NCBI GenBank assembly: GCA_020636645.1
Contig: JACJXO010000002.1
Location: 99,375 to 163,374, forward strand
Source of the DNA: Chitinophagales bacterium
GTDB taxonomy: Bacteria; Bacteroidota; Bacteroidia; Chitinophagales; BACL12
Reading direction: 5' to 3'
DNA: 64,000 nucleotides
The position numbers and the translations under genes were made by a program. Below, piece by piece: positions 8,919 to 23,475 of this stretch. Each line of letters starts with the position of its first letter. Positions within the stretch are counted from its first letter, which is position 1. The notes under the pieces are model-generated. The model was not told the origin of the DNA. It saw only the letters and a list, made by a program, of their open reading frames with translations, and made no database searches.

Positions 8919-10649
8919 TCAGAATTCCATTGAGAATAAGAGTGCTAACTGAGAAACGCCATAAGCAGGTAATGTGCCAATGACATTGCTAGTGCCAAAG
9001 TTGTTGTACTGCCCCATGACATACACCTGATCGCTGAAACGGTAACGGATACCTGCGCCACCCATCCACTGAGATCCATCTGCATTGAATTCATTAAAGT
9101 TGACAATATCTCCGTAGGCATCTGTCTGGTTCATGAATTCAAAACCACTGTATGAATGATATAACAATCCGGCTACCAGATCTGTTTTCTCCAGGATCTC
9201 TATTTCCAGTCCGGTGCCAGCTATCATCGTGCTGAGATCAACAGATGGAACGCCTTCCTGATCTGCCGGCCTGGAGGTGTTATCCATCCGTAAAGAAACG
9301 GAAGCCTTCAATGCTCTCGTTTTGTTTTTACTATAGCTTTCCTGCTCCCAGTTCAGACGTGCTTCAAGCCTGTTGAATTGCCTGTAACTGGTGGTTCCCT
9401 GACCCCTTACCTCAGTAAGCATAAGTCCATTCAGGTTGGCACTCAGCCGGTCATCCAGCAGTTTGCAGGTAGCGTTTGCCTGCAGCCCCTGTCTGTTGGG
9501 TGTGGCTGCACCGTAAGGAGTGATGTTATCATATCGTGGATCATAGACCATCAGACCTTCGCTGAGTTGCAGGTTGTACAATGATGATTCACGGATCAGG
9601 TCCAGCATGGTCAGAGAACGCACCAGCTGGTTATTGGTAAGACGATCAAAGGCTGCAGGATAGGCGTCAAACAACACACGCTTGGTCTGTGCACCCGGAC
9701 TTCTGAAATCCGGTCCTACCCATTTGTACCCTGCAGAGATGCTCAGTTTACCCCCGGCATCCTGCAGTTGAAACATCAGGTCAGAAAAGACATCAGACCG
9801 TTCAGGTGCCAGCGGATCTTCCAGGTAGCGGGTTTGCGACATACCTGCTTCCAGATCGCCGGAAAGGGTCCAGTTGCCAAAGCTTTTTTCGCTGCTCAAT
9901 GATGCGGTGTACACAGGGTTCTGCAACAGAATATCATTGCGTGAAGTACCCTTCAGGTCATACAGACTGGCGTAGGTAAATGCACCTGACAGATACGCTC
10001 CCTGCACCCATTCTATACTGGCTGAGCTGAACAGGCGGTCGCTTACCGTGGCAAAATTGGACGGCATGACCCTGCTGGTGAAGAGGTGCATATCTGCCGA
10101 TTCGATGACAGACCGGAAGTTGAATCCGAAGTCAACCGCGGCGCCCTGCTGCCTCCAGCTGTGATCCAGATTTTGGAAATTATCGTACATGACCTGATCG
10201 CTCAGATGTGCAAGCAGAACAGGCGACAGGTCATATAGTTCCTGATCGTTGTTGTAGAGGGTGTATTTGGTCAACTGATAATTGATATCGCCCAGCTGGT
10301 AGCGCACAACTTTGTTCAGCACACCTTTAAGGTAAAGCTGGCGTATATCGAATGTGACACCCGCACCCCAGAATCCACCAAAATCATTGCGGATGCGCAC
10401 CATTCCCTGGATCTCAAGATCTTCAGACGGACGGATATTCACACCGATATCAGCCAGCGCATGTCCGCTGTTCTGCCGGGGTGGAGTAACCGTGTCGGGC
10501 TCTGCCAGTTCCTGTTCCAGCACATCAGCAAAGTATATGGAACGGGCGGCACCATTCACGGTGAACTTGGGAGTTGTCTGTTGTGCCTGCACTGCGGTTG
10601 AAAGGCAGAGCAGCGTACAGAAGATTCCTGTGGTCAATTGTTTATGCAC
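8919..10649 (-). CDS. Outer-membrane beta-barrel protein (porin-like), candidate oligosaccharide channel. GTG start.
   Basis: Signal peptide ending AVQAQQ. Alternating-hydrophobicity beta-strand pattern throughout. C-terminal ...LLFSMEF with terminal Phe. 576 aa, too small for SusC. Its start overlaps the upstream stop by 1 nt (TAGTG). Confidence 0.55.
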   Translation of the reverse strand: MHKQLTTGIFCTLLCLSTAVQAQQTTPKFTVNGAARSIYFADVLEQELAEPDTVTPPRQNSGHALADIGVNIRPSEDLEIQGMVRIRNDFGGFWGAGVTFDIRQLYLKGVLNKVVRYQLGDINYQLTKYTLYNNDQELYDLSPVLLAHLSDQVMYDNFQNLDHSWRQQGAAVDFGFNFRSVIESADMHLFTSRVMPSNFATVSDRLFSSASIEWVQGAYLSGAFTYASLYDLKGTSRNDILLQNPVYTASLSSEKSFGNWTLSGDLEAGMSQTRYLEDPLAPERSDVFSDLMFQLQDAGGKLSISAGYKWVGPDFRSPGAQTKRVLFDAYPAAFDRLTNNQLVRSLTMLDLIRESSLYNLQLSEGLMVYDPRYDNITPYGAATPNRQGLQANATCKLLDDRLSANLNGLMLTEVRGQGTTSYRQFNRLEARLNWEQESYSKNKTRALKASVSLRMDNTSRPADQEGVPSVDLSTMIAGTGLEIEILEKTDLVAGLLYHSYSGFEFMNQTDAYGDIVNFNEFNADGSQWMGGAGIRYRFSDQVYVMGQYNNFGTSNVIGTLPAYGVSQLALLFSMEF

Positions 10650-12628
10650 TAGAAAAATATTTTAATTTCTACCATAGTTTCCTGGCCCTGAAATGCATCA
10701 TCGGCAAAACTGGCATCTTCAAATGCGAACCATCGGTGACGCAGATACAGGCGGGCATTAAATCCCAGATCGATATCCAGGCCGGCGCCATATCCTGTAC
10801 CGGTCTGATTTCGGGGTCTTCTGCTTTCTTCATCAATATCTGTCAGATAGTTGCCCAGGGTTCTTTCATAGCCTGCATAGCCAGAAATCAGTATCCGGTC
10901 GCCCAGTTCCAGATAGGCTTCCAGTTCATTGGCATATTGCCTGATGTAAGCTTCTTCGCTGGTAACCGTAAAGGCTGAGAACGATCGTTGTACTGAAGAA
11001 TAGTATCCCAGATAGAACAGGTAAATATTCTTGCCGAATACTTTGGAATGGTATTTTACCTGCGGTTCAAATACGCTGAAGAACTTCTTGTTGATGACCA
11101 CTCCGGAACTGTCGTCAAAGAGGTTTACGGTCTCATAGACATCGCGGTATATGACCGAATAACGCTGGTAAGGCCCCACTTCTGCAGGAAACAGCCAGCG
11201 CCACATGCGGCTTCTGGTCAGTTGATTGACAGGATGTCCATAAGTGATGACCGAAGAAATGGGTTCCAGTTCTGCCTGTGCAGCCAGACCGATATTGAAT
11301 TTAAAATCACCCAGGGTGTATTCCATATTCAGATCTGCTCCCTGTCGGTTATTAGACATCTGACCGATGCGCAGCATAGAACTGCCGAATGGCTGCAATA
11401 CCGCAGTGCTGCCTATTGTTCCGGCAGGTAATGCTGCAGGATTGTACTCTCGGATAGCAGTATTGAGAAAAATGGAATTGTCATTGATGACCTTCGGACT
11501 GATATAGAAATAGTGCAGGCTCCATCGGGGCAATGTCTTCTTCGCAGGTGTGGTCAGGGTAGCGGATATCAGCCCTCCGTTGCCGGCATCTTGCACCGGA
11601 CTGAAGTAATTTCCCAGTCCACCTTCGGCCAGCAATGAAAATCCTTTCATATGCACCATCCACTCCAGGGTGGTGAGGTGAAATCCTACCTTTTCTTCCG
11701 ACAGACTATCGGCCCAGGTGGTAGCATGCAAACTGTTGATGCTGATGTACTGTCCGGGTCCTGTTTTCTTTTGCAGTTTTCCCCCATAAGTATAACTTGG
11801 CCAGGGACTGAAGCCTCCGTTGAATTCAGATTTACCCACCAGGGCAGTAAAGGAAAGGTCTTTGGGAAGGCCGTTTCCATCCAGTATCAAACCCTTGAAT
11901 GCCCGGTTTCCCCAACGGGTATCCTGGTTGATACCACCTTCGTTGAAATAGGTCTCGTAGCGGGCCGGCAAAGAAGCTCCTGCCGGATCCCATGGATTGC
12001 GTTCAAACAGTGTAAAGCGATTATATCCCCTGAAAGAAGCCATGGTCAGGTCAGACAAACGCACCCAGTGAATGCCGCCTGCCCGCAAGGTAAATGTGCC
12101 GGAGCGGGTTTCCTGGATACCGGTAAAGTTCAGCCCGAGATTCAGGTTCATCTGTCCGCCAAGGCGTGTTCCGCTTAATGGATCCTGAAAAGAGGGACGA
12201 AGTGAATCCGGCACTTGTGCCCCATAGGTGGTGCCGATGGCACCATTGAGAAACTGAAAGGCAAACACATCAAATGAAAATGAAGTATGCGGAGCAGGTT
12301 TCCCGGAGATGGTGAGTTGCAGATTTGGAAGCTGGCTGTCATCACCAATGAAGAGACTGGCTGGCAATACAGTATCATTAATAACAGGATTCAGCACATA
12401 GGGAAGGTCATGTGTGGTATAGGTGGCAAAGAAGCGGTAAAATCCTGACACAGAGATCTTTCTGAGCGGCGATGGTTCTTCTGCAGGACGGATGCCCAAT
12501 GCAGTTTCCGTACTGTCTTCTACCTGTGCTACAGCTGTGTTGGCAGCCATCATACAGATCAGTATCAGCCACATGATAAAGCTGCCTGATACAAACATTT
12601 TCAGATTAGACGTACGGGTTCCTGACAT
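10649..12628 (-). CDS. Outer-membrane beta-barrel protein (porin-like), second copy. Not a TonB-dependent transporter.
   Basis: Probable true start at the internal Met (MFVSGSFIMWLILICMMAANTAVAQ, about 12598). Beta-strand periodicity. C-terminal VEIKIFF. No TonB box or plug. Confidence 0.55.
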   Translation of the reverse strand: MSGTRTSNLKMFVSGSFIMWLILICMMAANTAVAQVEDSTETALGIRPAEEPSPLRKISVSGFYRFFATYTTHDLPYVLNPVINDTVLPASLFIGDDSQLPNLQLTISGKPAPHTSFSFDVFAFQFLNGAIGTTYGAQVPDSLRPSFQDPLSGTRLGGQMNLNLGLNFTGIQETRSGTFTLRAGGIHWVRLSDLTMASFRGYNRFTLFERNPWDPAGASLPARYETYFNEGGINQDTRWGNRAFKGLILDGNGLPKDLSFTALVGKSEFNGGFSPWPSYTYGGKLQKKTGPGQYISINSLHATTWADSLSEEKVGFHLTTLEWMVHMKGFSLLAEGGLGNYFSPVQDAGNGGLISATLTTPAKKTLPRWSLHYFYISPKVINDNSIFLNTAIREYNPAALPAGTIGSTAVLQPFGSSMLRIGQMSNNRQGADLNMEYTLGDFKFNIGLAAQAELEPISSVITYGHPVNQLTRSRMWRWLFPAEVGPYQRYSVIYRDVYETVNLFDDSSGVVINKKFFSVFEPQVKYHSKVFGKNIYLFYLGYYSSVQRSFSAFTVTSEEAYIRQYANELEAYLELGDRILISGYAGYERTLGNYLTDIDEESRRPRNQTGTGYGAGLDIDLGFNARLYLRHRWFAFEDASFADDAFQGQETMVEIKIFF

Positions 12629-12699: not shown

Positions 12700-14061
12700 T
12701 TAGAGCGACTGTTCCCGCAGCTGGATTGCCTTCTGGTATTGCTCACCTGAAGGATCGGGCAGGACATAAAAAGGTATGTTCAGGTATGCGTAATGATTGG
12801 CTGCATCATAGACATACAGGAACAGGCGGTAGGCACCTTCACTTTGCGGAGCTCGGAAACTTACCTGCTGGCTGTCTTTTCGCATGCCCAGACCTTTCAC
12901 GGAGGGCGGACGGGATTCTGCATCGCCACCGGCTTTTATATCCTGGCTTTCACTCACCACTTCCCAGATGAATTTCATCTGATCGCCGTCTGCATCTGTC
13001 ACAGTTGCCAGTGCCTGGCAGGGTTGCCCTGGTTGCAGAATGATGTCTGCACCTTTTGACTGTCCGTTTAGCGAAGCGGAAGCAATGGCAGGTGCCCTGT
13101 TGGCAGGTTCCTTTCCTGTCCAGGCTCTGATCAGCTCATCTATGGCTTCAGACTGGCGGCCGTCTTCAGAGAGCAGGCCATACCAGGTAGAGGTGGTTTC
13201 CTGTTTTTGTCCCCACAGGAAGACATAAGACCCCACGCATTTAACCCTGTCGCCGGCTATATAATTATTATATCTTGCTTTGTAGGAAGCGGCTTTTTCA
13301 CTGCTGCTCTGCTCTACAGGAGCATTCCATTTTGTCTTGCTGACCTCCCAGTGTCCGTTGGGCCCCCATTCACTGATGATGTATGGCCCTTGCCAGCCGG
13401 CAGACCGGATGGTATCAGGCACAATTCCAATGTCTCCGTATGTGTTTATACCGTATATATCAATAGAAGGAGCGTTGGCCATGATGAGTCTCACTTCAGC
13501 AGGATCCAGTCCTGCCGTAACGGTAGAAGTAGGATGGTTGGGATCAATCTGATGGATCATGGCAGCTATATCTTCAATGGCGTTCCAGACCTTTGTATTG
13601 CTGTAGAACAGATCCACTTCATTACCAACACCCCACAGCAAGAGGGCGGGGTGGTCTTTATAGGTCTTTACCACTTCTGTGAAATAGTCCAGCTGAGCCT
13701 TCACTTTGGATTCATTGTCATAGTCAAACCCATGTCTTTCATGCTGAACCCATAGGCCAAGCATGACCGTCATACCCAGGCGTTGTGCTTCATCAAGTAA
13801 TTCACCGGCATCATCCGGACTCCAGGTCCGGAAACTGTTGGCACCGCATGCTGCTGCCAGATCCAGGTGGTCTGTACCTCCAACACCGTTTATATAGTAT
13901 GGCTCACCATTGCGGTATAACTGCCACTGACCTTCGCTGTTCATGCCTACCGTAACAGGTATTGCCTGACCAGAAACAAGCACTGGGAGGAACAATAGTG
14001 AAGCCAGCAACCAGGACAAACGGCTATGATGCGATATGCGTTTCATGAATGGTATGATCAT
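12700..14061 (-). CDS. Secreted clan GH-A glycoside hydrolase with a C-terminal beta-sandwich (GH158-like architecture). Paralog of 1515..2810.
   Basis: Signal peptide. HERHGFDYD and WGVGNEVDL motifs shared with the paralog. C-terminal domain similarity (DADGDQ..F.WEVV). Overlaps the regulator's stop by 38 bp. Confidence 0.6.
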   Translation of the reverse strand: MIIPFMKRISHHSRLSWLLASLLFLPVLVSGQAIPVTVGMNSEGQWQLYRNGEPYYINGVGGTDHLDLAAACGANSFRTWSPDDAGELLDEAQRLGMTVMLGLWVQHERHGFDYDNESKVKAQLDYFTEVVKTYKDHPALLLWGVGNEVDLFYSNTKVWNAIEDIAAMIHQIDPNHPTSTVTAGLDPAEVRLIMANAPSIDIYGINTYGDIGIVPDTIRSAGWQGPYIISEWGPNGHWEVSKTKWNAPVEQSSSEKAASYKARYNNYIAGDRVKCVGSYVFLWGQKQETTSTWYGLLSEDGRQSEAIDELIRAWTGKEPANRAPAIASASLNGQSKGADIILQPGQPCQALATVTDADGDQMKFIWEVVSESQDIKAGGDAESRPPSVKGLGMRKDSQQVSFRAPQSEGAYRLFLYVYDAANHYAYLNIPFYVLPDPSGEQYQKAIQLREQSL

Positions 14062-14740
14062 ACGTGAATAATCGGGCAGGTCGATGCGATACGTCTTCCT
14101 GGAACAGCTCTGTTTCTACCAGGTAAGGCATCTCATGAAGCTTTTTTCTGAAATTCCCTTTGTCATAAGAACGGTTCAGTACTACCTCAAAGAACTGCTG
14201 CAATTCTGAAAGCGTGAAGAACTGAGGCAGCACAGCTTCCCACAGCGGCCTGCGCCGGGTGCTGTGCTGCGTGCGGTGTCTTAGTTTATCCAGGGCGTAG
14301 CGAATGATGTCTGCATGGTCAAAGGTCAGTTCCGGAATGTCATCAAGCGAAAACCATTGAGCTTTATTGGCCCAGTGTGACGGCTGCGGCTGCACATCCA
14401 GTTTGTTGACAATTGCGTAATATCCAATGGTTACCACCCGTCTTCCCGGCACCCTGTCAGCTTCTCCGAAGGCGTGTGCCTGCTGCAGAGGAATATGAGC
14501 AAGTCCGGTCAGGTCTCGCAGTACACGATGGGCTGCTTCATCAATGTCTTCCTGAGGATAGACAAGATCTCCCGGAAGTGCCCAGGACCCCTGAAGCTCT
14601 TCAGCACCTATTTCTATGAGCATGACCTCCAGTGACTGTACCCCGTAGCCAAACACTACACAGTCAATGGAAACCTCCATCATGCGGTCATTGTCCTGAG
14701 GCTTCTTCCTCCTGTTGGCATTATCGAAGTTGTTTTTCAT
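14024..14740 (-). CDS. NUDIX-domain transcriptional regulator of the NrtR family (AraR-like sugar-responsive type), with a C-terminal winged-helix domain.
   Basis: N-terminal NUDIX-like fold (GSWALPGDLVYPQEDIDEAAHRVLRDLTGL) and a C-terminal wHTH-like region. It is the first gene of the minus-strand array, divergent from the repeat-protein genes. An alternative start at MMEVSID is possible. Confidence 0.65.
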   Translation of the reverse strand: MKNNFDNANRRKKPQDNDRMMEVSIDCVVFGYGVQSLEVMLIEIGAEELQGSWALPGDLVYPQEDIDEAAHRVLRDLTGLAHIPLQQAHAFGEADRVPGRRVVTIGYYAIVNKLDVQPQPSHWANKAQWFSLDDIPELTFDHADIIRYALDKLRHRTQHSTRRRPLWEAVLPQFFTLSELQQFFEVVLNRSYDKGNFRKKLHEMPYLVETELFQEDVSHRPARLFTYDHTIHETHIAS

Positions 14741-14800: not shown

Positions 14801-14823
14801 GTAGCTTTTTGTAAAAATTACAA
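14801..14823. promoter_or_regulatory. Candidate NrtR-type operator in the divergent promoter: 18-mer GTAGCTTTTTGTAAAAAT containing the palindrome TTTGTAA-AAA-TTACAAA (core GT-N7-AC).
   Basis: Perfect inverted repeat with 7-bp arms, between the regulator start (14740) and repeat-protein gene 1 (14911). The same 18-mer recurs at 4409-4426. Confidence 0.5.
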
Positions 14824-14910
14824 ATTCTTTTTCCAACTTTTTGTATTTTATACTAAAAGGGATATTTTTACTGAGTAAATAGCAGCTATAACCTTTTAAA
14901 ATTCCTACCA

Positions 14911-16506
14911 ATGAGATCCATTTTTACCTTCTTTGCAGCTGTTCTGCTCTCCACAGCCGCAATGGCTCAGACCTACAATGTCACCTTCCGGGTTGACATG
15001 AATGAAGTAGGTGACCCTTACACAACTCCTGAAGTAAACGGCAGCTGGGATGGCTGGTGTGGCGGTTGTACTCCGCTGGAAGATCCTGATGGTGATGGTG
15101 TGTGGACCATTACCAAAACACTGGATGCAGGCTTTTATGAGTATAAGTTTGCCTTTGACAGCTGGGCCGGATCTGAGACCCTGGCTCCGGGCTCATCCTG
15201 TACCATTACCACCGGTGGCTTTACCAACCGCTTTGTTGATGTGACCGGCGATGTTGCCCTCGATACCGTATGTTATGGTGCCTGTACTACCTGTTCAGAA
15301 GCCGTCACATATGACATCACTTTTTATGTGAACATGAATGAAGTAGGCGATCCTTATACCACTCCTGAAGTGAATGGTAACTGGGACGGCTGGTGCGGTG
15401 GTTGTACTCCGCTGGAAGATCCTGACGGAGATGGTATCTGGAGTATAACCAAGTCTCTCTCTCCCGGTACCTATGAATACAAGTTTGCCTATGACAGCTG
15501 GACAGGTTCAGAGAACCTCGCCCCCGGTACAGACTGTACCATCACCACCGGAGGCTTTACCAACCGGATTATAACTGTAGATGCAGATGCTGCCCTCCCG
15601 GTAGTATGCTGGGGAAGTTGCAGCAACTGCGGAGAGGCTGTACTGTATGATGTAACCTTCCAGGTCAACATGAATGAAGTGGCTGATCCGTTCACCACAC
15701 CAGAAGTGAATGGTACTTTCAATGGTTGGTGCGGCGGTTGTGCGCCTATGTCAGATGGCGATGGCGACGGTATCTGGGAGATCACCATTCCTCTGGAAGC
15801 CGGCACGTATGAATATAAATTTGCATATGATAGCTGGGCAGGACAGGAAACCCTGACTCCCGGCGATCCTTGTACTATGACCACTGATGTATTCACCAAC
15901 AGGGTGATCACCATCAGCGAAGAAACTGTGATAGGTGCAGTATGCTGGGGCAGCTGCGACAATTGTGTTGTGGCTACCTGCGAGCTTCCGTCTGATGTGA
16001 CCATTGACTATGTAGGAGGTACCGGCACGGAAGCAACCGTTACCTGGACCGCTGTACCTGGTGCTACCCAGTACGGACTCCGTTATCGTGAACTTGGTAC
16101 TCCTGAATGGCTTAAAAAAGCTACCACAGGTACCGGTGTTTTCCTGATCGGCCTGACCCCTGGTGCAACATATCAGTATCAGATGGTAAGCCGCTGCGGT
16201 GAAGACCGTGCAGGCCCCGGTTCCATTGCTACCTTCACTACTCCTACCAGAATGGGACAGTTTGGTTCTGATGACTGGATGGTATATCCTAATCCAAGCA
16301 ATGGTACCTTCCAGCTGGTTTCTTCAGGTCTGTCAGAACAAGCCATGCTGATGGTCATGAATGTGGCAGGTCAGCAGGTGTATGAGACCATGATCACCAA
16401 CGACAGCCAGACCATAACCCTGAATGGCCTTGCCGATGGCTTGTACACCCTGGTAATCGTTGCAGGTGAAAGTATGTCTGCAACTACCATTTCCATTCTG
16501 CAATAA
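14911..16506 (+). CDS. T9SS-secreted protein with 3 tandem copies of a roughly 112-aa six-cysteine repeat domain (CBM-like), then Fn3, then a T9SS C-terminal sorting domain.
   Basis: Signal peptide AAMAQ. The repeat (TF.VDMNEV.DP.TTPEVNG.WDGWCGGCTPLEDPDGDG.W...YEYKFA.DSW.G.E.L.PG..CT.TTG.FTNR.....VCWGSC) is seen three times. Fn3-like TVTWTAVPGATQY. CTD VYPNPSNGTFQL...ISILQ. Confidence 0.8.
   Translation: MRSIFTFFAAVLLSTAAMAQTYNVTFRVDMNEVGDPYTTPEVNGSWDGWCGGCTPLEDPDGDGVWTITKTLDAGFYEYKFAFDSWAGSETLAPGSSCTITTGGFTNRFVDVTGDVALDTVCYGACTTCSEAVTYDITFYVNMNEVGDPYTTPEVNGNWDGWCGGCTPLEDPDGDGIWSITKSLSPGTYEYKFAYDSWTGSENLAPGTDCTITTGGFTNRIITVDADAALPVVCWGSCSNCGEAVLYDVTFQVNMNEVADPFTTPEVNGTFNGWCGGCAPMSDGDGDGIWEITIPLEAGTYEYKFAYDSWAGQETLTPGDPCTMTTDVFTNRVITISEETVIGAVCWGSCDNCVVATCELPSDVTIDYVGGTGTEATVTWTAVPGATQYGLRYRELGTPEWLKKATTGTGVFLIGLTPGATYQYQMVSRCGEDRAGPGSIATFTTPTRMGQFGSDDWMVYPNPSNGTFQLVSSGLSEQAMLMVMNVAGQQVYETMITNDSQTITLNGLADGLYTLVIVAGESMSATTISILQ
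14968..15975 (+). repeat. 3 x 336-bp coding tandem repeat, one protein domain per unit.
   Basis: Units begin near 14968, 15304 and 15640. Nucleotide identity is high but with third-position divergence. Confidence 0.75.
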
Positions 16507-16515
16507 ATTTCATCC

Positions 16516-16541
16516 GGGGAGCTGACAATCAGCTCCCCTTT
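16516..16541 (+). terminator. Intrinsic terminator after repeat-protein gene 1 (GGGGAGCTG-acaat-CAGCTCCCC-TTT).
   Basis: 9-bp GC-rich stem and 5-nt loop, 10 bp after the stop codon. Short T run. Confidence 0.55.
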
Positions 16542-16554
16542 AAACACTACCCAA

Positions 16555-19014
16555 ATGAAACGTATTATTCAACTCGTGGTTATCGCACTGCTGATGTCTT
16601 CGGCAGCGATGGCCCAAACCTACAATATCACCTTCCGGGTGGATATGAATGAAGTAGGTGATGCTTTCACCACACCGGAGGTGAACGGCACCTTCAATGG
16701 CTGGTGCGGTGGCTGTGCGCCAATGTCTGACGGCGATGGCGACGGTATCTGGGAACTCACCATTCCACTCGCAGCCGGATTTTATGAATACAAATTTGCT
16801 TATGATTCCTGGGCAGGCTCTGAGTCTCTGATCCCGGGTAGTTCCTGTACCATCACCACAGGTGAATTCACCAACCGTGCACTGGACGTAACCGGCGATG
16901 CTACCCTCGATGCGGTTTGCTGGGGAAGCTGCCTGAGCTGTTCAGATATCATCACTTATGCGGTAACTTTTTCAGTAGATATGAACGAAGTGGCCGGCCC
17001 TTTCACTACACCTGAAGTGAACGGTAGCTGGGACGGATGGTGCGGTGGTTGTACCCCGCTGTCTGATCCTGATGGCGACGGTATCTGGTCCACTACCAAA
17101 ATGCTGGAACCCGGTTACTATGAATATAAGTTTGCATACGACAGCTGGTCTGGTGATGAGTCTCTGACCCCCGGCGATCCTTGTACAGTTACTACAGACA
17201 TTTTCACCAACAGATTCATCAACGTGTCTGATGATGCAGATCTGGGCGTGGTATGCTGGGCCAGCTGTGAGGCTTGTGAAACCATTGGCCTCGAACAAAT
17301 GGACCTTCCTGTAACATTCGAAGATGCTGGTGTAGATTACGGTGTCATCGGATTTGAAGGCGCTGAAGCTTCTTCCATTGTAACCGATCCTACCGATGCT
17401 TCCAACACAGTCGTGCAGGTCATCAAATCTGCTTCCGCTATGCCCTGGGCAGGTACTACCGTAACCAATGCCGCTGAAGAAGGATTCGCTACACCGATTC
17501 CTTTTACCGCAGAAAATACACAGATGACCGTTCGGGTCTGGAGTCCCGATGCAGGTATTCAGGTACGTCTGAAAGTGGAAGATCACCTGGATCCTACCCA
17601 CTCTGTAGAGACCGAAGCAACCAGCACCGTTGCCGGCGACTGGGAAACGCTGACCTTTAACTTCAGCAATGAAGCTCCCGGTACAGCAGAACTCAACCTG
17701 GCTTATACTTTTGACAAGGCTTCCATCTTCTTCAACTTTGGCGTAGATGGAGCTACTGCAGGTGAAAAGACCTACTATTTTGATGACATCTATTTTGCAG
17801 AAGGCGGTGGCGCTTCTTCCTATACTGTTACTTTCTGGGTGGATATGAATGAGGTGCTGGCACCTTTTACCACTCCTGAAGTGAACGGCAGCTGGGATGG
17901 CTGGTGTGGTGGTTGTACCCCGATGGAAGATCCTGACGGCGACAATATCTGGACCGCTACCAAGGTGCTGGATGCAGGTTATTATGAGTACAAGTTTGCC
18001 TATGACAGCTGGACAGGAAGTGAAACCCTGACTCCCGGCGATCCCTGTACCGTGACCACCGATATCTTTACCAACCGGTTTATCAATGTGTCAGAAGATA
18101 CCGAACTGGGCGTGGTTTGCTGGGAAAGCTGCGAAGCCTGTACCGGAGAAGAACCGGTCATGATCACCTTCTCTGTGAACATGAATACAGTGGCAGATCC
18201 TTTCACTACACCTGAAGTGAACGGCAGCTGGGATGGCTGGTGCGGCGGTTGTACCCCGATGGAAGATCCTGATGGCGACGGTATCTGGACCGCAACCAAA
18301 ATGCTTTCTCCCGGTTACTACGAATACAAGTTTGCTTATGACAGCTGGACAGGACAGGAAAACCTGACCCCCGGCGATCCCTGTACTGTGACCACAGATA
18401 TCTTCACCAACCGCTTCATTGATGCAGTTGCTGATGAAGTGCTGCCAGTGGTTTGCTGGGAAAGCTGTGAGAACTGTGCAGAAGATTGTAACGCACCGGT
18501 TGATGTAGTGGTAACAGATATCACCTCTTCAGGGGCTACCATTTCCTGGACCGGAACATCCGGTGCTGATCAGTACCTGATCACCCTGGCTGATTTTGCA
18601 GCTGGTACCAGCGGTAAACAACGCACAGGTCCTGCAACTACCTTTGTAATAGAGGATATGCTGGCTCCTTCCACTGAATATTCTATTCGTATCAAATCTA
18701 TCTGCTACGACCTCGGTTTGCGTTCAGAACCTTCAGAAACCGTGTATTTCACCACCGCACCTATGCGTTCAGGTGGCGAATTTCACTCTGCAGTGTATCC
18801 GAACCCTACTGCTGGAAATCTGCAGGTACAAACCAACCTCAGCGGCACTGTCATGCTGACCGTAACAGGAATGACCGGTCAGTTGCTGATGAGCACCATT
18901 ATCGAAGCCGGTAGCACTTCTCTTGATCTGAGCATGTTTGCAGATGGTCTGTATATGATCCGTCTGGATAACGGACAGTCTTCAGAGATCTTTACCGTTT
19001 CACTGAACAGATAA
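16555..19014 (+). CDS. T9SS-secreted protein: 2 Cys-repeat domains, then a CBM-like beta-sandwich insert, then 2 more Cys-repeat domains, then Fn3, then a T9SS CTD.
   Basis: Same six-cysteine repeat seen four times. Insert domain (about aa 246-420: DLPVTFEDAG...WAGTT...VWSPDAG...FNFG...YYFDDIYF) resembles galactose-binding-like CBMs. Fn3 (VVVTDITSSGATISWTG). CTD (AVYPNPTAGNLQVQ...). Confidence 0.8.
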   Translation: MKRIIQLVVIALLMSSAAMAQTYNITFRVDMNEVGDAFTTPEVNGTFNGWCGGCAPMSDGDGDGIWELTIPLAAGFYEYKFAYDSWAGSESLIPGSSCTITTGEFTNRALDVTGDATLDAVCWGSCLSCSDIITYAVTFSVDMNEVAGPFTTPEVNGSWDGWCGGCTPLSDPDGDGIWSTTKMLEPGYYEYKFAYDSWSGDESLTPGDPCTVTTDIFTNRFINVSDDADLGVVCWASCEACETIGLEQMDLPVTFEDAGVDYGVIGFEGAEASSIVTDPTDASNTVVQVIKSASAMPWAGTTVTNAAEEGFATPIPFTAENTQMTVRVWSPDAGIQVRLKVEDHLDPTHSVETEATSTVAGDWETLTFNFSNEAPGTAELNLAYTFDKASIFFNFGVDGATAGEKTYYFDDIYFAEGGGASSYTVTFWVDMNEVLAPFTTPEVNGSWDGWCGGCTPMEDPDGDNIWTATKVLDAGYYEYKFAYDSWTGSETLTPGDPCTVTTDIFTNRFINVSEDTELGVVCWESCEACTGEEPVMITFSVNMNTVADPFTTPEVNGSWDGWCGGCTPMEDPDGDGIWTATKMLSPGYYEYKFAYDSWTGQENLTPGDPCTVTTDIFTNRFIDAVADEVLPVVCWESCENCAEDCNAPVDVVVTDITSSGATISWTGTSGADQYLITLADFAAGTSGKQRTGPATTFVIEDMLAPSTEYSIRIKSICYDLGLRSEPSETVYFTTAPMRSGGEFHSAVYPNPTAGNLQVQTNLSGTVMLTVTGMTGQLLMSTIIEAGSTSLDLSMFADGLYMIRLDNGQSSEIFTVSLNR
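16612..17290 (+). repeat. 2 x roughly 340-bp coding repeat units (gene 2, repeats 1-2).
   Basis: Same repeat family as 14968-15975. Confidence 0.7.
17815..18490 (+). repeat. 2 x roughly 338-bp coding repeat units (gene 2, repeats 3-4).
   Basis: Same repeat family. Repeat 3 is nearly identical at protein level to repeat 2 across the insert. Confidence 0.7.
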
Positions 19015-19019
19015 GTAAA

Positions 19020-19049
19020 TTCGGGGGTGCCTGACACCCCCGAATTTTT
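19020..19049 (+). terminator. Intrinsic terminator after gene 2 (TTCGGGGGTG-cctga-CACCCCCGAA-TTTTT).
   Basis: 10-bp stem, 5-nt loop, T5 tail. Confidence 0.7.
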
Positions 19050-19061
19050 AAACACATATAT

Positions 19062-20051
19062 ATGAGAAAACTTAAAACATTATTTCTGGCAGGTCTGTGT
19101 TCTGTTGGCATATTGTCAGCACAGACCTATGATGTGCTCTTCATTGTTGATATGAATGAAGTAGCAGATCCGTTCACCACACCTGAAGTGAATGGCACTT
19201 TCAACGTCTGGTGTGGAGGTTGTGCTCCTATGAGTGATGATAACGGAGACAATATCTGGGAACTGACCATCCCCCTGGATGCAGGTACATATGAATATAA
19301 ATTCGCCTATGACACCTGGACCGGACAGGAATCACTTACACCCGGTGATGAGTGCACCCTGACCACAGATATCTTCACCAACCGATTGCTGGTTGTGTCT
19401 GAAGACATGGAACTGGATACTGTTTGCTGGGGAAGCTGCGATGCTTGTGAAGATGTACTGCCCTCCTATACGGTTACCTTCAGAGTAGATATGAGTCAGG
19501 TAACTGATACCTATACGACACCTGAGGTAAACGGAACATTCAATGACTGGTGCGGTGGTTGTGCTCCTATGGCAGACGATGATGCTGATGATATATGGGT
19601 GCTGGATATCGTGCTGGAGCAAGGCTCCTATGAGTACAAGTTTGCCTATGATGCATGGACAGGTCAGGAAGAACTGACTGAAGGCGATGCCTGTACCATC
19701 ACTACCGATGCATTCACGAACAGGGCGCTTGACGTCAGTTCTGATACGGTACTCACAGCGGTTTGCTGGGGATCATGCGATGAATGTGTGACAATACCTG
19801 AGGCCATTGAAAATGTTACGTCAAACTTGTCTGTATTTCCTAACCCGGCCAGTGAACAGATATTCATTAGTGGTTTGCCTGCTTCCGGAATTGTTCAGCT
19901 GTTTAACAGTCTGGGTCAGCCGGTCCGTTCAGAGCAAATTACATCAGTATCTGGCAGTATTTCTGTTGTAGGACTTTCCGCCGGGGTCTACACCATACAG
20001 GTGCAGGATCAGGACGGTCAAATACAGAGCAGCATTATATTGATACGGTAA
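19062..20051 (+). CDS. T9SS-secreted protein with 2 diverged copies of the six-cysteine repeat domain plus a T9SS CTD.
   Basis: Signal peptide. Two repeats (WCGGCAPMSDDNGDNIW..YEYKFAYD.WTGQE). CTD (LSVFPNPASEQIFISGL...IILIR). Confidence 0.8.
   Translation: MRKLKTLFLAGLCSVGILSAQTYDVLFIVDMNEVADPFTTPEVNGTFNVWCGGCAPMSDDNGDNIWELTIPLDAGTYEYKFAYDTWTGQESLTPGDECTLTTDIFTNRLLVVSEDMELDTVCWGSCDACEDVLPSYTVTFRVDMSQVTDTYTTPEVNGTFNDWCGGCAPMADDDADDIWVLDIVLEQGSYEYKFAYDAWTGQEELTEGDACTITTDAFTNRALDVSSDTVLTAVCWGSCDECVTIPEAIENVTSNLSVFPNPASEQIFISGLPASGIVQLFNSLGQPVRSEQITSVSGSISVVGLSAGVYTIQVQDQDGQIQSSIILIR
19122..19795 (+). repeat. 2 x roughly 337-bp coding repeat units (gene 3).
   Basis: Same family, more diverged. 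Confidence 0.65.
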
Positions 20052-20069: not shown

Positions 20070-20097
20070 AAAGACGGCCGGAAGGCCGTCTTTGTTT
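20070..20097 (+). terminator. Intrinsic terminator after gene 3 (AAGACGGCC-ggaa-GGCCGTCTT-TGTTT).
   Basis: 9-bp stem, 4-nt loop, T-rich tail, about 20 bp past the stop. Confidence 0.65.
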
Positions 20098-20443
20098 GGC
20101 GACTATATACCTAATGGGAACAGCTTTGTAAGGCGTTAATATACAGCAATTTACACAGGTAATTAGCTGACCTGATTAGGTTTGTCTAAGAAATTTTTGA
20201 GAATAGCCTAAGTAATTTGTTCGGCTAAGACTGAATTTGAGGCGATTTCAGTTAATGGGGGTTAACTGATTGCGAGCTGTGAAACAATAGTTAACAAGTT
20301 CTAAATACAATTATTCTTGCATTATTGAAACAATCTAGTTTATTTGCAGTTAACTTTGTAAAACTAAGTGGACTTGGGGTCACTCTAAAACTGCCTTAAG
20401 TGGACCGCATGGAATTAATGGAAGAATTTATTGAGGGGCGAAG

Positions 20444-20515
20444 ACCGCATGGTGAGAATCGAACCCACATCTCCAGATTAGCAGTCTGGTGTTCTATCCG
20501 TTGAACTACATGCAG
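20444..20515 (-). tRNA. 72-nt class-I (short variable arm) tRNA whose anticodon loop CUGCUAA reads anticodon GCU. The isotype is anomalous: GCU is Ser, but there is no long variable arm and the acceptor pair is C1:G72.
   Basis: Hand fold of the reverse complement. Acceptor CTGCATG/CATGCGG (one G-U pair). D arm GTTC-AACGGATA-GAAC. Anticodon arm CCAGA-CTGCTAA-TCTGG. Variable loop AGAT. T arm GTGGG-TTCGATT-CTCAC. Discriminator T. Confidence 0.7.
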
Positions 20516-20703
20516 AATAGAAAGTAGGGGGGTCTAAATGATCCCCTTTTTTTCACCCCTTGCTTGTTGGGTGATCCATCTATTCAAATCTTCGCCTCAT
20601 CTTAAGGCACACAAATTTATCGAATTTTTTGTACCTAATCTCTTAAGATGTTTGTTGGAGGGCCCAATTTAAGTCGTGTTAATTCTTCACCAAATTCAAC
20701 TTA

Positions 20704-20913
20704 TTTATGATATTCTGGGGCTTCATACTGCTCCCTCCTGCCTACGGCTGCGCTGACTATGATGTAGTCTTTGCCCACTTCTAAGGCCTTGACGGTGCGC
20801 TCTCCCTTTTCCGGATGGTGTAGGCGTACTTCTGTGAGTTCTGGGTGCGGGGTGTTAAAGGCAGCGTCTATGACCTGCTCAAAGTCTCCGTGGATCTTCA
20901 GCTTCTTTTTCGT
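20704..20913 (-). pseudogene. Orphan 3' gene fragment (about 68 codons, no start codon), high GC, stranded between AT-rich segments. Remnant of a gene disrupted by island insertion.
   Basis: Minus-strand frame ...TKKKLKIHGDFEQVIDAAFNTPHPELTEVRLHHPEKGERTVKALEVGKDYIIVSAAVGRREQYEAPEYHK* bounded upstream by a stop with no ATG. GC is about 55%, against about 35% in the flanks. Confidence 0.45.
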
Positions 20914-20952
20914 ATTTCTTTGGTCGTTCTGCCATTATCTCCAACACTTGAT

Positions 20953-21615
20953 TTATTCAATGTATACCCATGATGGAGGGATTTCATAGCTAATTTCATC
21001 ATTTCCAATAATATTATCCATAATGGAACTGCGAAACTTACCCTCGTTATTCTCCAAACGTTTAGCTTTTTTCCGAACAAATCGATTCAGATCAAAACTG
21101 TTTCTTCTAGGTGGGAAAAAAATTTTTATTCTTTTATTAGGATAGTTTCTCCTTATAAACTCTAACGGTGGTACTAGGTCACTATCTGCAGAAATTAGTA
21201 CAATTAAATCAACATTGTCGAAAACACAGTCTTCAATTAGATTAACTGAAATATTAACATCAGTTCTTTTTTCCTCTCTTAAATCAAACTCCTGGTGGCA
21301 ACCTCCAATAGCATTACATTTAACCGTCTTAGTATAATACTTACCGTAAATCACCCTCAATAAATCGTTATTGACAAATCTGTTCGCATTAAAGAATGTT
21401 GTTTGCCTACTTGCTTTATTTGGATCAAGGGGCATGGCTGTGAAGTATTTCACACATACTAATTCATGAATATTTGGATCTAGAAATGATCTACAAAACC
21501 CCACTAAATCAATCCAATAGTACTGCTGCCAACGGGCATGTATTTTCGCCTTGGCTGTCCTTAAGCCATAGTAAAAATTGAATCCGTCAATATAGAATAT
21601 AGTTCTTAGTTGCAT
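20953..21615 (-). CDS. NYN-domain (PIN-like, LabA/DUF88-type) predicted ribonuclease.
   Basis: IDGFNFYYG...DVNISVNLIEDCVFDNVDLIVLISADSDLVPPLEF: acidic residues on an alternating beta/alpha pattern, typical of NYN. AT-rich codon usage. Confidence 0.6.
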   Translation of the reverse strand: MQLRTIFYIDGFNFYYGLRTAKAKIHARWQQYYWIDLVGFCRSFLDPNIHELVCVKYFTAMPLDPNKASRQTTFFNANRFVNNDLLRVIYGKYYTKTVKCNAIGGCHQEFDLREEKRTDVNISVNLIEDCVFDNVDLIVLISADSDLVPPLEFIRRNYPNKRIKIFFPPRRNSFDLNRFVRKKAKRLENNEGKFRSSIMDNIIGNDEISYEIPPSWVYIE

Positions 21616-21739
21616 AAAAAAACCGCCTGTATGTCGGCGGCAAACTAACCGAGTTACCAGTTAGCGAGGTTATACTGCAAATCTAACGTCCAACTAGACA
21701 AAAACGCAAAAATTTAACACTTATTTTCATACTATTTGC

Positions 21740-22600
21740 ATTTAACTTGCTAATTATCAAGTAATTAAATCAATATTTCTGAGCCGGGCATTGCCTACTC
21801 TCTCCAATACCTTGTCGAAGCGTTCGGTATCTGTGGCATTGCGGGTGTTGTACCTATATTCAAATTCATGGCAGTACTTCTGCAGGTGCTTCGGGCTGAC
21901 ATAATGGTAGATGCCAATAATACCCCTCTTCAACAGGCTGAACGCCCCCTCTATGGTGTTGATATGGACATTACCCCTGACATACTCTCCCCGACCATGT
22001 GCTACGCTGTCCACAAGATAGAGCCTGTGCGATGGCCGATAACCACTGTATTCGTCAGTATGTAGAATAGCCCCTGGCTTGACGTTGGCGAGGACAAACT
22101 CTCTCATATTCTTGGCCAATGCACGTTCTACCTGTAAATACCTGATCTCTCCCTTTCTCTCCAATGCACCCAATACATGCGTTTTCTTGTTCACCCATTT
22201 AGGGCCGTCAGTGTTCGGGTATTCTTTCGGAACTTGCCGTGCTTGTTGCTTTCTTTTCCTCCTATATAGGTTTCATCTAATTCCACGTCTTCGGTCAGGA
22301 GTTCGGCTGCATTTGTTCCTAACATAGTCCTGATGCGGTGCAGAATGAACCAAGCTGTTTTCTGAGTTACTCCCAGGTCACAGCTTAGCTGCAAACTGCT
22401 GATACCCGTCTAAGCCCCTGTCCTTAAACCTTGTCTTGGTCCGGTAATAGTGTTCACTCCCGCAATGCGGACACTCTGGCTTGCCATTCCATCGCTTCAG
22501 CTCCAAATACTCAAAACAAACCCGCTCATTGTGGAAGTGCTTTTGTAGCTGTAATAATGTCTTAAATTTAGTCATGGCTCAGGCTTTTAGTCACAAATAA
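21740..22600 (-). mobile_element. IS1595-family insertion sequence remnant. The transposase is split into three consecutive ORFs by frameshifts. Terminal inverted repeats not identified.
   Basis: ORFs 22378-22575 (Zn-finger CPHCGSEHYY), 22191-22394 (HTH-like) and 21757-22194 (DDE core ...HTDEYSGY...HINTIEGAFSLLKR...) together reconstitute an IS1595/ISXO2-like transposase. Confidence 0.65.
21757..22575 (-). pseudogene. IS1595-family transposase, frameshifted into 3 ORFs.
   Basis: See the mobile_element entry. Adjacent ORFs overlap by 4 and 17 bp in different frames. Confidence 0.6.
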
Positions 22601-22629
22601 ATCTATTCCCAATAAATACCTAAATTACA

Positions 22630-23142
22630 ATGAATGATTTTTACCACTTCATGAGTAGTGGCCATCCAAATGCAGTGCAAATCAATAGAATAATTGACTC
22701 TATCAGGGGTCGCTACATTAGTATTTTCACAATACTTGAAGGATCAATTGATAGAGTAATTGCAGGGTATTATGCTCCAACAAAAACAAAAAGAGATCAT
22801 CTTTTGACAAACCTTCTCGGACACCGATTCTGTTCCTTTGAATTAAAGTCATCTGTTCTAACAGAAATCCTTAAAGACTCAGGAATTGAAGGATATAAAG
22901 CCAAGCTGTCTGGTTTAGCTCAATTAAGAAATGCCCTTGCACATAGACCTATATATGCAATAGGGGAATTTACAGAAGACCCGAACGAACTATTTTACTA
23001 TATACCATCATATCAAATGAATTACGAACACAATTTAAGGTTAGAGTCAATCAAGTATGAGCTAACTGAAGAAAACTTTAATGAGTATAGCGAGAAAACA
23101 TTAGAAATAGCAAAAATGCTAGACCAGTTTGTTTCCAAATAA
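22630..23142 (+). CDS. HEPN-like / Abi-type (AbiD/AbiF-like) hypothetical protein.
   Basis: Helical 170-aa protein with an R-x4-H HEPN-type motif (LRNALAHRP). AT-rich. Lies in a mobile context. Confidence 0.4.
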   Translation: MNDFYHFMSSGHPNAVQINRIIDSIRGRYISIFTILEGSIDRVIAGYYAPTKTKRDHLLTNLLGHRFCSFELKSSVLTEILKDSGIEGYKAKLSGLAQLRNALAHRPIYAIGEFTEDPNELFYYIPSYQMNYEHNLRLESIKYELTEENFNEYSEKTLEIAKMLDQFVSK

Positions 23143-23475
23143 AAAACGGTATCACCTTGCCGCCTTTGGATTTGGTAATACCGTCTCGCTGAAAGCTGAA
23201 TATGCCTATTCCCTTTCAACTCCCCCACAGAGAAAACCTTCTGATAGCCCCCCTGTTCAGAACGAGGACAACAAATGTACCCATTATGTATATAGTTAAT
23301 AAATTATTAGGTGTTCTTCAAATATTTCTTAGATAGACTTAATCTGTTACGGTTGCAACCTCCGAGCATGCTGTATATAAATATCTTGTAAGGCTATTCC
23401 CAATAATGATATAGGTTCGTAAAAGAGAAGAATAAAATTAATATAGTATATTCGCAAAATCTAAATACAGTATAT

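Follow-up and report, generated by a model that had tools for sequence, protein, structure and literature searches.

Three adjacent genes of a Chitinophagales bacterium, here called A, B and C, encode exported proteins assembled from copies of a six-cysteine repeat, and are situated next to an operon of β-glucan hydrolases that is transcribed in the opposite direction. The role of these proteins at this locus, and the sugar that their repeats would bind, if any, were addressed by computational analysis of the window (the whole 64-kb stretch of DNA that was analysed) and of related loci in other species. An earlier sequence-only reading had proposed glycan capture at the cell surface by a module matching no known CBM family. 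Its account of the repeats, the cysteines, T9SS sorting and the locus was confirmed, its proposed glycan-capture role was supported, and its statement on CBM families was not.

Results

Genes A, B and C carry nine repeats and T9SS sorting domains

Three plus-strand open reading frames are present (Table 1), with exactly the boundaries previously given for them, and the nine repeats are distributed as claimed (three in A, four in B and two in C). Each protein starts with an N-terminal Sec signal peptide, read from its translation (aa 1-20 in A, ending ...AMA before QTY). The T9SS sorting domains reported for all three proteins were recovered above curated cut-offs: the type-A CTD (aa 458-524 of A and 747-813 of B) scored 39.0, 35.0 and 38.8 bits with PF18962 (Por_Secre_tail; cut-off 27) and 40.1, 40.4 and 44.5 bits with TIGR04183 (cut-off 23) for A, B and C, respectively. 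An fn3 domain precedes the CTD in A (aa 360-443) and B (aa 647-729); this domain, a 180-aa extra domain in B and the Pfam CBM matches described below were absent from the sequence-only reading. A GC-rich hairpin with a T run was read 3′ of each gene, and due to the terminator-like hairpins upstream of B and C, co-transcription with A is not assured. A sigma-70 promoter scan (8 found, 8.1 expected) was uninformative; Bacteroidota promoters are outside its scope.

Table 1 Features of the repeat-protein genes and the divergent operon (positions in the window)
Feature	Position	Strand	Description	Basis
Gene A	14911-16506	+	531 aa: signal peptide, three six-Cys CBM48/X25-like repeats, fn3, T9SS type-A CTD	ORF, Pfam, NCBIfam
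Repeats A1-A3	14971-15294, 15307-15630, 15643-15966 (span 14971-15966)	+		Repeat alignment
Hairpin 3′ of A	16516-16538	+	GC-rich, then TTTAAAC	Read from sequence
Gene B	16555-19014	+	819 aa: signal peptide, two repeats, CBMxx-like laminarin-binding-type domain, two repeats, fn3, T9SS CTD
Repeats B1-B2	16618-16941, 16954-17277 (span 16618-17277)	+		Repeat alignment
B insert domain	17278-17817 (aa 242-421)	+	180 aa, between repeats 2 and 3; β-sandwich
Repeats B3-B4	17818-18141, 18154-18477 (span 17818-18477)	+		Repeat alignment
Hairpin 3′ of B	19017-19047		GC-rich	Read from sequence; terminator scan
Gene C	19062-20051	+	329 aa: signal peptide, two repeats, T9SS CTD aa 258-326
Repeats C1-C2	19125-19448, 19464-19787	+		Repeat alignment
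Hairpin 3′ of C	20070-20093		GC-rich	Read from sequence
Candidate operator	14808-14824, 14840-14856	.	Two TTGTA-N5-TACAA palindromes in the 170-bp intergenic region between regulator and gene A
Regulator	14024-14740	-	NrtR/AraR-like Nudix + winged helix; first gene of divergent operon, overlaps next gene by 38 bp
GH158	12700-14061	-	Secreted endo-β-1,3-glucanase	PDB 9oro, GH158(Pro), E 8e-102; 6pal, BuGH158, E 4e-79
Conserved genes of no recognised family	5889-12628	-	659, 576, 334, 399, 276 aa
GH30	4465-5892	-	Divergent operon
MFS sugar transporter	2807-4405	-	Divergent operon
Second GH158	1515-2810	-	Lipoprotein	9oro, E 2e-84; 6pal, E 1e-65

The nine 108-aa repeats aligned without any gap, with a start-to-start spacing of 336 bp (339 in C) and a period of 336 given independently by TRF. 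Pairwise identity was 56-81% at the amino acid level and 60-77% at the nucleotide level. All six cysteines (C30, C33, C77, C101, C105 and C108) are invariant in 9/9 repeats, as had been noted, and are among 46 invariant columns that also include the motifs quoted previously (TTPEVNG, WCGGC, YEYKFA, FTNR and VCW.SC..C). Repeats differed at 23%, 22% and 51% of first, second and third codon positions, respectively, and the saturation of synonymous sites (median dS about 1.6) together with a median dN/dS of about 0.16 indicates an old duplication under purifying selection, in line with the original suggestion.

Among 1002 unique domains of the family, C30 and C33 (the WCGGC pair) were both missing in about 31%, with the rest of the domain conserved; judged from these sequences, the pair is dispensable in the family. 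C101/C108 and C77/C105 were also lost as pairs, which is the pattern expected for disulfides, and the co-loss statistics suggest up to three disulfides per module (C30-C33, C77-C105 and C101-C108).

The module is related to starch- and glycogen-binding domains

The WCGGC module had been said to match no CBM family. In Pfam, however, all nine single repeats matched X25_BaPul_like (PF22058) and AMPK1_CBM (PF16561), and three of the nine matched CBM_48 (PF02922) at E≤0.01. X25_BaPul_like was the best-scoring model, with a best single-repeat score of 31.2 bits over only model positions about 14-60 of 87, and whole-protein scores of 72.7, 77.2 and 43.6 bits for A, B and C (gathering cut-off 27). 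The corresponding whole-protein scores were 63.3, 71.7 and 35.8 bits for AMPK1_CBM (cut-off 26.8; single repeat 23.4) and 47.0, 50.6 and 35.9 bits for CBM_48 (cut-off 22.4), these two cut-offs being exceeded because the scores of the repeats add up. With Pfam CBM_20 (PF00686), A scored 17.2 bits, under the 23.3 cut-off, and B and C had no match. The AF2 model of repeat B2 (pLDDT 96.3) has the CBM20/CBM48 starch-binding β-sandwich fold, and all of its top fold matches were starch or glycogen binders; CE1 esterase CBM48s (8bbp, 6rzn, 7b5v) were also among the matches. The Pfam matches and the fold make the module a subfamily of a known superfamily rather than a new fold, and as this superfamily is classically α-glucan-binding, a β-glucan assignment is not a given. 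The best reading of the module is a widespread six-cysteine offshoot of the CBM20/48/X25 superfamily.

Homologues were collected with a full-length query and an exhaustive profile search; querying a word index with one 108-aa repeat gave only 20 short fragments. The family has about 1500 members and comprises 575 clusters at 50% identity (E≤1e-30), found mostly in uncultured environmental Bacteroidota, with up to 18 repeats per protein and many arrays consisting of repeats and CTD and nothing more. CBM_20, CBM53 and GlgB_N were considered as co-occurring starch domains in homologues and rejected as independent domains, since their coordinates overlap the repeat. The literature on CBM48 with T9SS or GH158, X584 and CBM102 yielded no description of the module or of its linkage.

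The candidate sugar site is conserved and B contains a laminarin-binding-type domain

The module retains the canonical Trp/Lys/Trp(/Asn) residues of carbohydrate-binding site 1. W29, K59 and W65 align by HMMER with the FNNW, YKF and GQW positions of the AMPK β1 CBM, which we take to be W100, K126 and W133, and with the SEX4 equivalents; from the motifs TNRFINV and VNNIIQV, N86 would correspond to AMPK β1 N150. Conservation across the 1002 unique domains was 93% for W29, 92% for K59, 82% for W65, 92% for N86 and 98% for R87. Every sequence or structure relative with a known ligand is an α-glucan binder (CBM20, CBM48, X25), and intact starch-site residues would fit an unchanged α-glucan specificity equally well.

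The insert domain of B is homologous, in both sequence and fold, to the CBM with which the Christiangramia forsetii SGBP binds laminarin (‘CBMxx’, PDB 8QX6), and a CBMxx-like domain was present in 32 of 146 family representatives. When 42 large family members were scanned, a fusion to GH16 was found in one and a fusion to GH13 or another α-glucan enzyme in none.

The divergent operon encodes β-1,3-glucanases without SusC/D

Pfam and PDB matches of the operon genes substantiated the description of A as divergent from the NrtR-like regulator of a β-glucan hydrolase operon lacking SusC/D. Both GH158 genes have GH158(Pro) as their closest structure, an enzyme with its highest efficiency on laminarin (PMC13195107). 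There were no Plug, TonB_dep_Rec or SusD Pfam matches among the ten operon genes, and the locus is not a canonical Bacteroidota PUL. The 659-aa and 576-aa proteins have a signal peptide and a C-terminal Phe and are outer-membrane-barrel-like, and the 334-aa, 399-aa (CBM30-like) and 276-aa proteins are lipoproteins; in Pfam, NCBIfam and PDB sequence searches the 399-aa protein had a weak CBM30 match alone and the other four had no match. The regulator scored 68 bits with NrtR_WHD, 34.9 with NUDIX and 37.6 with AraR_C, and its score of 112 with the NCBIfam NtrR equivalog (cut-off 400) sets it apart from the ADP-ribose NtrR equivalog.

The two TTGTA-N5-TACAA palindromes between the regulator and gene A are the only matches in the window (0.02 expected) and represent a candidate operator of the NrtR-like regulator. 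An exact-palindrome scan of other loci gave few matches; a relaxed TGTA-N3-9-TACA pattern, applied to NrtR-upstream regions, exposed the conserved motif. Of 47 other species, 29-30 have TTGTA-N5-TACAA 5′ of their NrtR-like gene (background 0.076 per 290 bp).

The repeat genes co-occur with β-glucanase genes in other species

Synteny was examined at 75 loci from distinct species, the best-scoring 75 of at least 549 matches, and frequencies in the family at large may differ from those in this subset. Within it, an NrtR-like gene was present at 47 loci, GH158 at 39-40, GH16+PKD at 18, MFS at 15, GH3 at 12 and a thioredoxin-fold or Redoxin gene at 7. The linkage to β-glucanase genes recurred in other species of Bacteroidota, with GH158 at 36 of the 45 informative loci (those of the best-scoring 75 with ≥2.5 kb upstream); GH16 and GH3 were often present too. 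One related species (locus L071) has a classical SusC/SusD/PKD/GH16 PUL with GH158, NrtR and a repeat gene. Some genomes have extra repeat-protein genes outside any glucanase locus (e.g. L028, L050, L065, L079). Neither the window operon nor the conserved neighbours at the 75 loci included GH13, GH31, GH77 or other α-glucan genes.

Discussion

A, B and C probably catch sugars at the cell surface, and their sugar preference may have changed. The reading that we favour, with a confidence slightly above even, is that they are exported by Sec, sorted by the T9SS and act as non-catalytic, multivalent glycan binders of a β-1,3-glucan (laminarin/chrysolaminarin type) utilisation system. Each protein would be a string of 2-4 rigid β-sandwich modules, stapled by up to three disulfides and each presenting a sugar platform of Trp29, Lys59, Trp65 and Asn86, and protein B would add a cleft-type laminarin-binding CBM. 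After T9SS-mediated display on the cell or release from it, they would enrich soluble helical glucan around GH158 and GH30 (GH16 and GH3 in relatives) and the outer-membrane uptake proteins of the divergent operon, with the NrtR-like regulator probably co-controlling both sides via TTGTA-N5-TACAA in the shared intergenic region. Glycan capture for this locus, as originally proposed, is strengthened by the synteny, the fusion to a laminarin-binding CBM and the operator-like palindrome.

The repeats could instead have kept the ancestral specificity and bind α-glucan (starch, glycogen) at the surface, with only the CBMxx-like domain of B addressing β-glucan; the proteins would then capture α-glucan storage polymers that algae or bacterial necromass release along with laminarin, or attach cells to particles containing starch. 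The X25, AMPK1_CBM and CBM_48 matches, the starch and glycogen binders that make up the top fold matches and the conserved W/K/W(/N) residues all point this way. We nevertheless consider it unlikely, though deserving of serious weight, as no α-glucan gene accompanies the repeats in the operon or its conserved counterparts, no α-glucan enzyme is fused to the large family members (the apparent starch domains overlapping the repeat itself), and linkage and fusion are consistently to β-glucan components.

Arrays of up to 18 repeats, many with only a CTD added, are also what would be seen if the repeats were a rigid, protease-resistant, disulfide-stapled stalk that keeps partner proteins, or the CBMxx-like domain, at a distance from the cell, or if they served adhesion or aggregation, in either case without specific sugar binding. 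In agreement with such a role, CE1 esterase CBM48s lacked affinity for the glycans tried (PMC8040265) and elongated multi-CBM SGBPs are thought to extend from the surface (bioRxiv 10.1101/2023.09.07.556657). However, A and C lack any further functional domain that a stalk could present, conservation is strongest at the sugar-site residues of the relatives (W29, K59, W65, N86) and not at core residues only, and dN/dS is about 0.16 across the nine copies, which together make a purely structural role improbable. Far less probable again is a redox or metal function, in which WCGGC (cf. thioredoxin WCGPC) would be a redox-active CxxC and C77 with Cx3Cx2C a metal or cluster site. This is suggested by motif resemblance and by the thioredoxin-fold or Redoxin gene at seven related loci, but was rejected on the fold, which is a CBM β-sandwich and not thioredoxin, and on the paired cysteine losses, including the joint absence of C30 and C33 from about 31% of the 1002 domains, which are otherwise conserved; the proteins are moreover exported to an oxidising compartment.

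Building on the favoured role in β-1,3-glucan capture, a wider proposal is offered tentatively, as one that we hold somewhat less likely to be right than wrong: the six-cysteine module would represent a new lineage at the rank of a CBM family, in which the starch-binding CBM20/48 scaffold with its Trp-Lys-Trp platform was retargeted from helical α-1,4- to helical β-1,3-glucan. Together with the conserved 659-, 576- and 334-aa outer-membrane proteins, it would make up a system for capturing and importing laminarin that depends on the T9SS but not on SusC/D. Such a system would be common among Flavobacteriales and Chitinophagales of freshwater and wastewater, its present annotation as ‘1,4-alpha-glucan branching enzyme’ being wrong. 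Public annotation of these proteins as branching enzymes or CBM48 would cause them to be counted as starch or glycogen genes in CAZyme surveys, whereas their context points to the β-1,3-glucan pathway; if this is true, carbon-cycle studies of freshwater and wastewater over-call α-glucan potential and under-call laminarin capture. A switch from α- to β-glucan on the CBM20/48 scaffold would, if demonstrated, be a clean example of how specificity can evolve while the aromatic platform is kept, and would probably lead to a new CBM family. The outer-membrane proteins of the linked operon offer a testable alternative to SusC/D-based uptake.

Comparison with known systems

The module shares with CBM48, the AMPK β glycogen-binding domain and the SEX4 CBM the signature G-x-F-N-x-W ... 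G-x-Y-E-Y-K-F-x-x-D-x-W and the aligned Trp/Lys/Trp. It differs in having only about 20-25% identity to them, with single repeats at or just under Pfam cut-offs over the N-terminal 50-70 residues only, and in its own C-terminal third (C77, FTNR, VCWxSCxxC), WCGxC loop and six cysteines. It also occurs in tandem on T9SS cargo, without a GH13, kinase or phosphatase partner, and in a β-1,3-glucan rather than an α-glucan genomic context. X25 of pullulanases (PF22058), the best Pfam model for the repeats, is found in amylolytic enzymes and starch-adherence proteins, whereas the modules here form free-standing arrays beside β-glucanases. From CBM20 (STBD1, GDE5, glucoamylase, laforin) the repeats are set apart by scores under the Pfam CBM_20 cut-off, and no evidence of the second CBM20 binding site was obtained in them.

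The CBM48s of CE1 feruloyl/acetyl esterases (wtsFae1A/B, DmCE1B) likewise have the CBM48 fold outside a starch setting, and as they do not bind starch (PMC8040265), CBM48 membership is no guarantee of starch binding. They are packed on the catalytic domain and have no aromatic platform, in contrast to the free-standing modules of A, B and C with their conserved platform. The C. forsetii laminarin SGBP (four CBMxx, PDB 8QX6) is, as A, B and C would be, a non-catalytic, elongated, multi-CBM surface protein from a laminarin locus. Its unit is the cleft-type CBMxx, and it is anchored as a lipoprotein and belongs to a SusC/D PUL, in contrast to the CBM20/48-like fold of the repeat and the T9SS CTD at the window locus, which lacks SusC/D. 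Proteins made up of CBMs alone, with as many as 8 repeats, have been described beside GH16, GH17 and GH30 (bioRxiv 10.1101/2023.09.07.556657).

Anatomy, age and selection of the repeat proteins

Genes A, B and C were recovered as plus-strand open reading frames at the same coordinates as in the sequence-only reading (Table). All three translations have an N-terminal Sec signal peptide with the cleavage region ...A(M/S)AQ and, as that reading had claimed, a C-terminal T9SS sorting domain (CTD); it is of type A and clears the curated thresholds of Pfam and NCBIfam alike. Two features absent from it are an fn3 domain preceding the CTD in A and B, and a 180-aa domain of B (aa 242-421) that separates repeats 2 and 3.

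Extraction of the repeat units by regex/HMM gave nine 108-aa units, 3 + 4 + 2 across A-C, that align without gaps at a start-to-start distance of 336 bp (339 bp in C); Tandem Repeats Finder independently reported a 336-bp period, and no tenth copy was found anywhere in the 64-kb window. Pairwise identity is 56-81% (amino acid) and 60-77% (nucleotide), and 46 columns are invariant, including C30, C33, C77, C101, C105 and C108 (repeat numbering) and the motifs quoted in the sequence-only reading, whose copy number and six conserved cysteines this alignment upholds. Pairwise mismatches at codon positions 1, 2 and 3 amount to 23%, 22% and 51%, synonymous sites are saturated (median dS ~1.6, with 8 of 36 pairs too divergent to correct) and dN/dS has a median of ~0.16, indicating that the copies are old and under purifying selection, as had been proposed.

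A GC-rich hairpin with a T run follows each gene, and an identical 9-mer, TTTAAACAC, lies 3′ of the A and B hairpins, 7-8 nt ahead of the B and C start codons, where it may be a common translation-initiation or processing element. Directly downstream of gene C is a low-GC island (0.35-0.39 vs ~0.49), probably horizontally acquired, which also includes a 170-aa ORF.

Table. Features of the repeat-protein locus and its surroundings (window coordinates)
Feature	Position	Strand	Remarks
Second GH158, lipoprotein	1515-2810	-	E 2e-84 to PDB 9ORO, 1e-65 to 6PAL
MFS sugar transporter	2807-4405	-	
GH30, glucosylceramidase-like	4465-5892	-	
276-aa lipoprotein	5889-6719	-	
399-aa CBM30-like lipoprotein	6716-7915	-	
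334-aa lipoprotein	7912-8916	-	
576-aa protein	8919-10649	-	signal peptide, C-terminal Phe
659-aa protein	10649-12628	-	signal peptide, C-terminal Phe
GH158	12700-14061	-	E 8e-102 to PDB 9ORO, 4e-79 to 6PAL
NrtR/AraR-like regulator	14024-14740	-	38-bp overlap with GH158 (14024-14061)
TTGTA-N5-TACAA copies	14808-14824, 14840-14856		170-bp regulator/gene A intergenic region
Gene A	14911-16506	+	531 aa
Hairpin + T run after A	16516-16538		
9-mer	16539-16547, 19048-19056		
Gene B	16555-19014	+	819 aa
Hairpin + T run after B	19017-19047		
Gene C	19062-20051	+	329 aa
Hairpin + T run after C	20070-20093		
Low-GC island	20100-26050		probably acquired horizontally
NYN-domain gene	20953-21615		in island
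IS1595 transposase remnant	21757-22194		in island
845-aa T9SS cargo protein	23476-26013		in island; no further recognisable domain

Family membership and conservation of the repeat

The module had been placed in no known CBM family, a claim that fails. Pfam X25_BaPul_like, AMPK1_CBM and CBM_48 score 36-77 bits over whole proteins A-C; in single-repeat scans all nine repeats match X25_BaPul_like (best 31.2 bits, cut-off 27) and AMPK1_CBM (23.4 bits for the repeat reported, slightly below the cut-off of 26.8), and three of nine match CBM_48, with matches confined to the N-terminal 50-70 residues. By sequence and fold the module is a member of the CBM20/CBM48/X25 superfamily, nearest to X25 and AMPK-type CBM48. 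In HMMER alignments W29, K59 and W65 fall on the Trp, Lys and Trp of the sugar-binding site of AMPK beta1 (1Z0N) and SEX4, which we take to be W100/K126/W133 and W278/K307/W314, respectively; from the common motifs T-N-R-F-I-N-V and V-N-N-I-I-Q-V we infer that N86 corresponds to AMPK N150.

A profile was run exhaustively against 1.84 billion representatives, yielding 575 clusters at E<=1e-30 and, at the looser E<=1e-10, 1535. Member proteins contain 2-18 repeats, and the most frequent architecture consists of repeats plus an 85-95-aa CTD. Where a source is named, it is nearly always an uncultured member of the Flavobacteriales, Chitinophagales or another Bacteroidota group, sampled from a lake, river, pond or wastewater. 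Members often carry the JGI name '1,4-alpha-glucan branching enzyme' (P0003, P0035, P0040 and P0042, among others), likely a systematic mis-annotation of non-catalytic repeats due to their CBM48-like match.

Across 1002 unique full-length family domains, W29 is kept in 93%, K59 in 92%, W65 in 82%, N86 in 92%, E69 in 93% and R87 in 98%. All six cysteines are present in 62%; C30 and C33 are jointly missing in ~31% and singly in ~2%, so the WCGGC loop is dispensable. Among the last four cysteines the only double losses are C101+C108 (29 domains) and C77+C105 (4), and predicted disulfides C30-C33, C77-C105 and C101-C108 would give this pattern. WCGGC (repeat residues 29-33, e.g. 15055-15069) resembles the thioredoxin active-site WCGPC, found exactly in some homologues, and C101-x3-C105-x2-C108 echoes radical-SAM CX3CX2C spacing; both likenesses were put down to chance, given that the module folds as a CBM beta-sandwich and its cysteines vanish pairwise.

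A divergent beta-glucan operon and its conserved linkage

Upstream of and divergent from gene A lies a ten-gene minus-strand operon, with two strong homology-based GH158 assignments; 9ORO is a GH158(Pro) endo-processive beta-1,3-glucanase that prefers Laminaria laminarin (PMC13195107). SusC and SusD were looked for in the operon and neither was found, making this a non-canonical beta-1,3-glucan degradation cluster and upholding the earlier description of a beta-glucan hydrolase locus without SusD. The 659-, 576- and 334-aa proteins (7912-12628) match nothing in Pfam, NCBIfam or PDB; the signal peptide and C-terminal Phe of the first two resemble outer-membrane beta-barrels, and the order of the trio beside GH158 is maintained in 24-37 other species. 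Together the three may form an apparatus for glycan uptake that works without SusC/D.

Overlapping GH158, the NrtR-like gene heads the glucanase operon as its first cistron, an arrangement suggestive of autoregulation. The two TTGTA-N5-TACAA copies are the only matches in the 64-kb window (0.02 expected), and 29-30 of 47 other species have the palindrome 5′ of their NrtR-like gene (background 0.076 per 290 bp). It is a probable operator common to the operon and gene A, and a candidate for recognition by a sugar-responsive NrtR/AraR-type regulator.

A survey of one genome per GTDB species confirmed at least 549 hits; the 75 distinct loci that scored best were analysed by BLAST with the window's proteins and by independent clustering of flanking ORFs. 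Neighbours were the NrtR-like gene (47 of 75), GH158 (40; 39 by clustering), the 659-aa (37), 576-aa (28) and 334-aa (24) proteins and the CBM30-like protein (19; 18 by clustering), followed by PKD-GH16 (18), MFS transporter (15) and GH3 (12). When only the 45 loci whose sequence extends 2.5 kb or more upstream of the first repeat gene are counted, 36 have GH158. The typical order is CBM30-like, 334, 576, 659 and GH158, all on the minus strand, then the regulator, flanked on one or both sides by a repeat gene. Orthologues share 45-60% identity across two orders, so the linkage has been retained and does not reflect recent common descent. In a Flavobacteriales MAG (L071:1-8609), GH158 and the NrtR-like gene adjoin a classical SusC/SusD/PKD-protein/GH16 PUL terminating in a repeat-protein gene; repeat proteins thus serve SusC/D-type laminarin loci too. 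Several genomes have extra repeat genes in unrelated contexts. A Redoxin/AhpC-TSA thioredoxin-fold protein (~394 aa) recurs in seven related loci, directly 3′ of a repeat gene and GH16 in L034, L038, L039, L041, L042 and L045, and could bear on oxidative folding of the Cys-rich modules.

Proposed function and comparison with known modules

The B insert is homologous to PDB 8QX6, which appears to be the CBM ('CBMxx') of a Christiangramia forsetii laminarin SGBP. CBMxx has a laminaritriose co-crystal structure, and its Ka for laminarin is ~1e5 per M; the same study reports that proteins made up of CBMxx alone, in up to eight copies, are often encoded beside GH16, GH17 and GH30, and that the domain extends beyond Bacteroidota (bioRxiv 10.1101/2023.09.07.556657). 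The sources of the homologues found here are consistent with this. Of 146 representative repeat proteins, 32 carry a B-type insert.

Judged by family, fold and binding residues, the repeats would still be alpha-glucan specific, a reading we consider unlikely though worth serious weight; synteny, fusion and co-regulation instead favour beta-1,3-glucan. No alpha-glucan enzyme was among the conserved neighbours in the best-scoring 75 of at least 549 hits, nor fused in any of 42 large family members, one of which has a GH16 domain. CBM_20, CBM53 and GlgB_N matches in homologues were dropped as independent starch evidence because they overlap the repeat itself, and the CBM48 modules of CE1 esterases show that CBM48 is not uniformly starch-binding (PMC8040265). 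A mainly structural stalk is improbable, and a redox or metal role for the repeats very much more so.

We lean, by a modest measure, towards capture of beta-1,3-glucan as the predicted repeat ligand. A-C would be exported by Sec, form their repeat disulfides in the periplasm and be translocated by the T9SS with removal of the CTD, followed by surface attachment or release. Each chain would display 2-4 rigid sugar platforms, to which B would add a cleft-type laminarin CBM, and soluble helical glucan would be caught by avidity near GH158, GH30 and the operon's outer-membrane proteins, in relatives also near GH16 and GH3 enzymes. The glycan capture proposed from sequence survives, considerably strengthened.

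A search of the available literature library found no published description of the six-Cys repeat module; what we count as novel is this subfamily, together with its apparent retargeting and its connection to a locus that lacks SusC/D. Compared with X25 and AMPK-type CBM48, the repeats described here have a unique C-terminal third, six cysteines and a WCGxC loop, occur in free-standing tandem arrays on T9SS cargo, and stand in a beta-glucan genomic setting.
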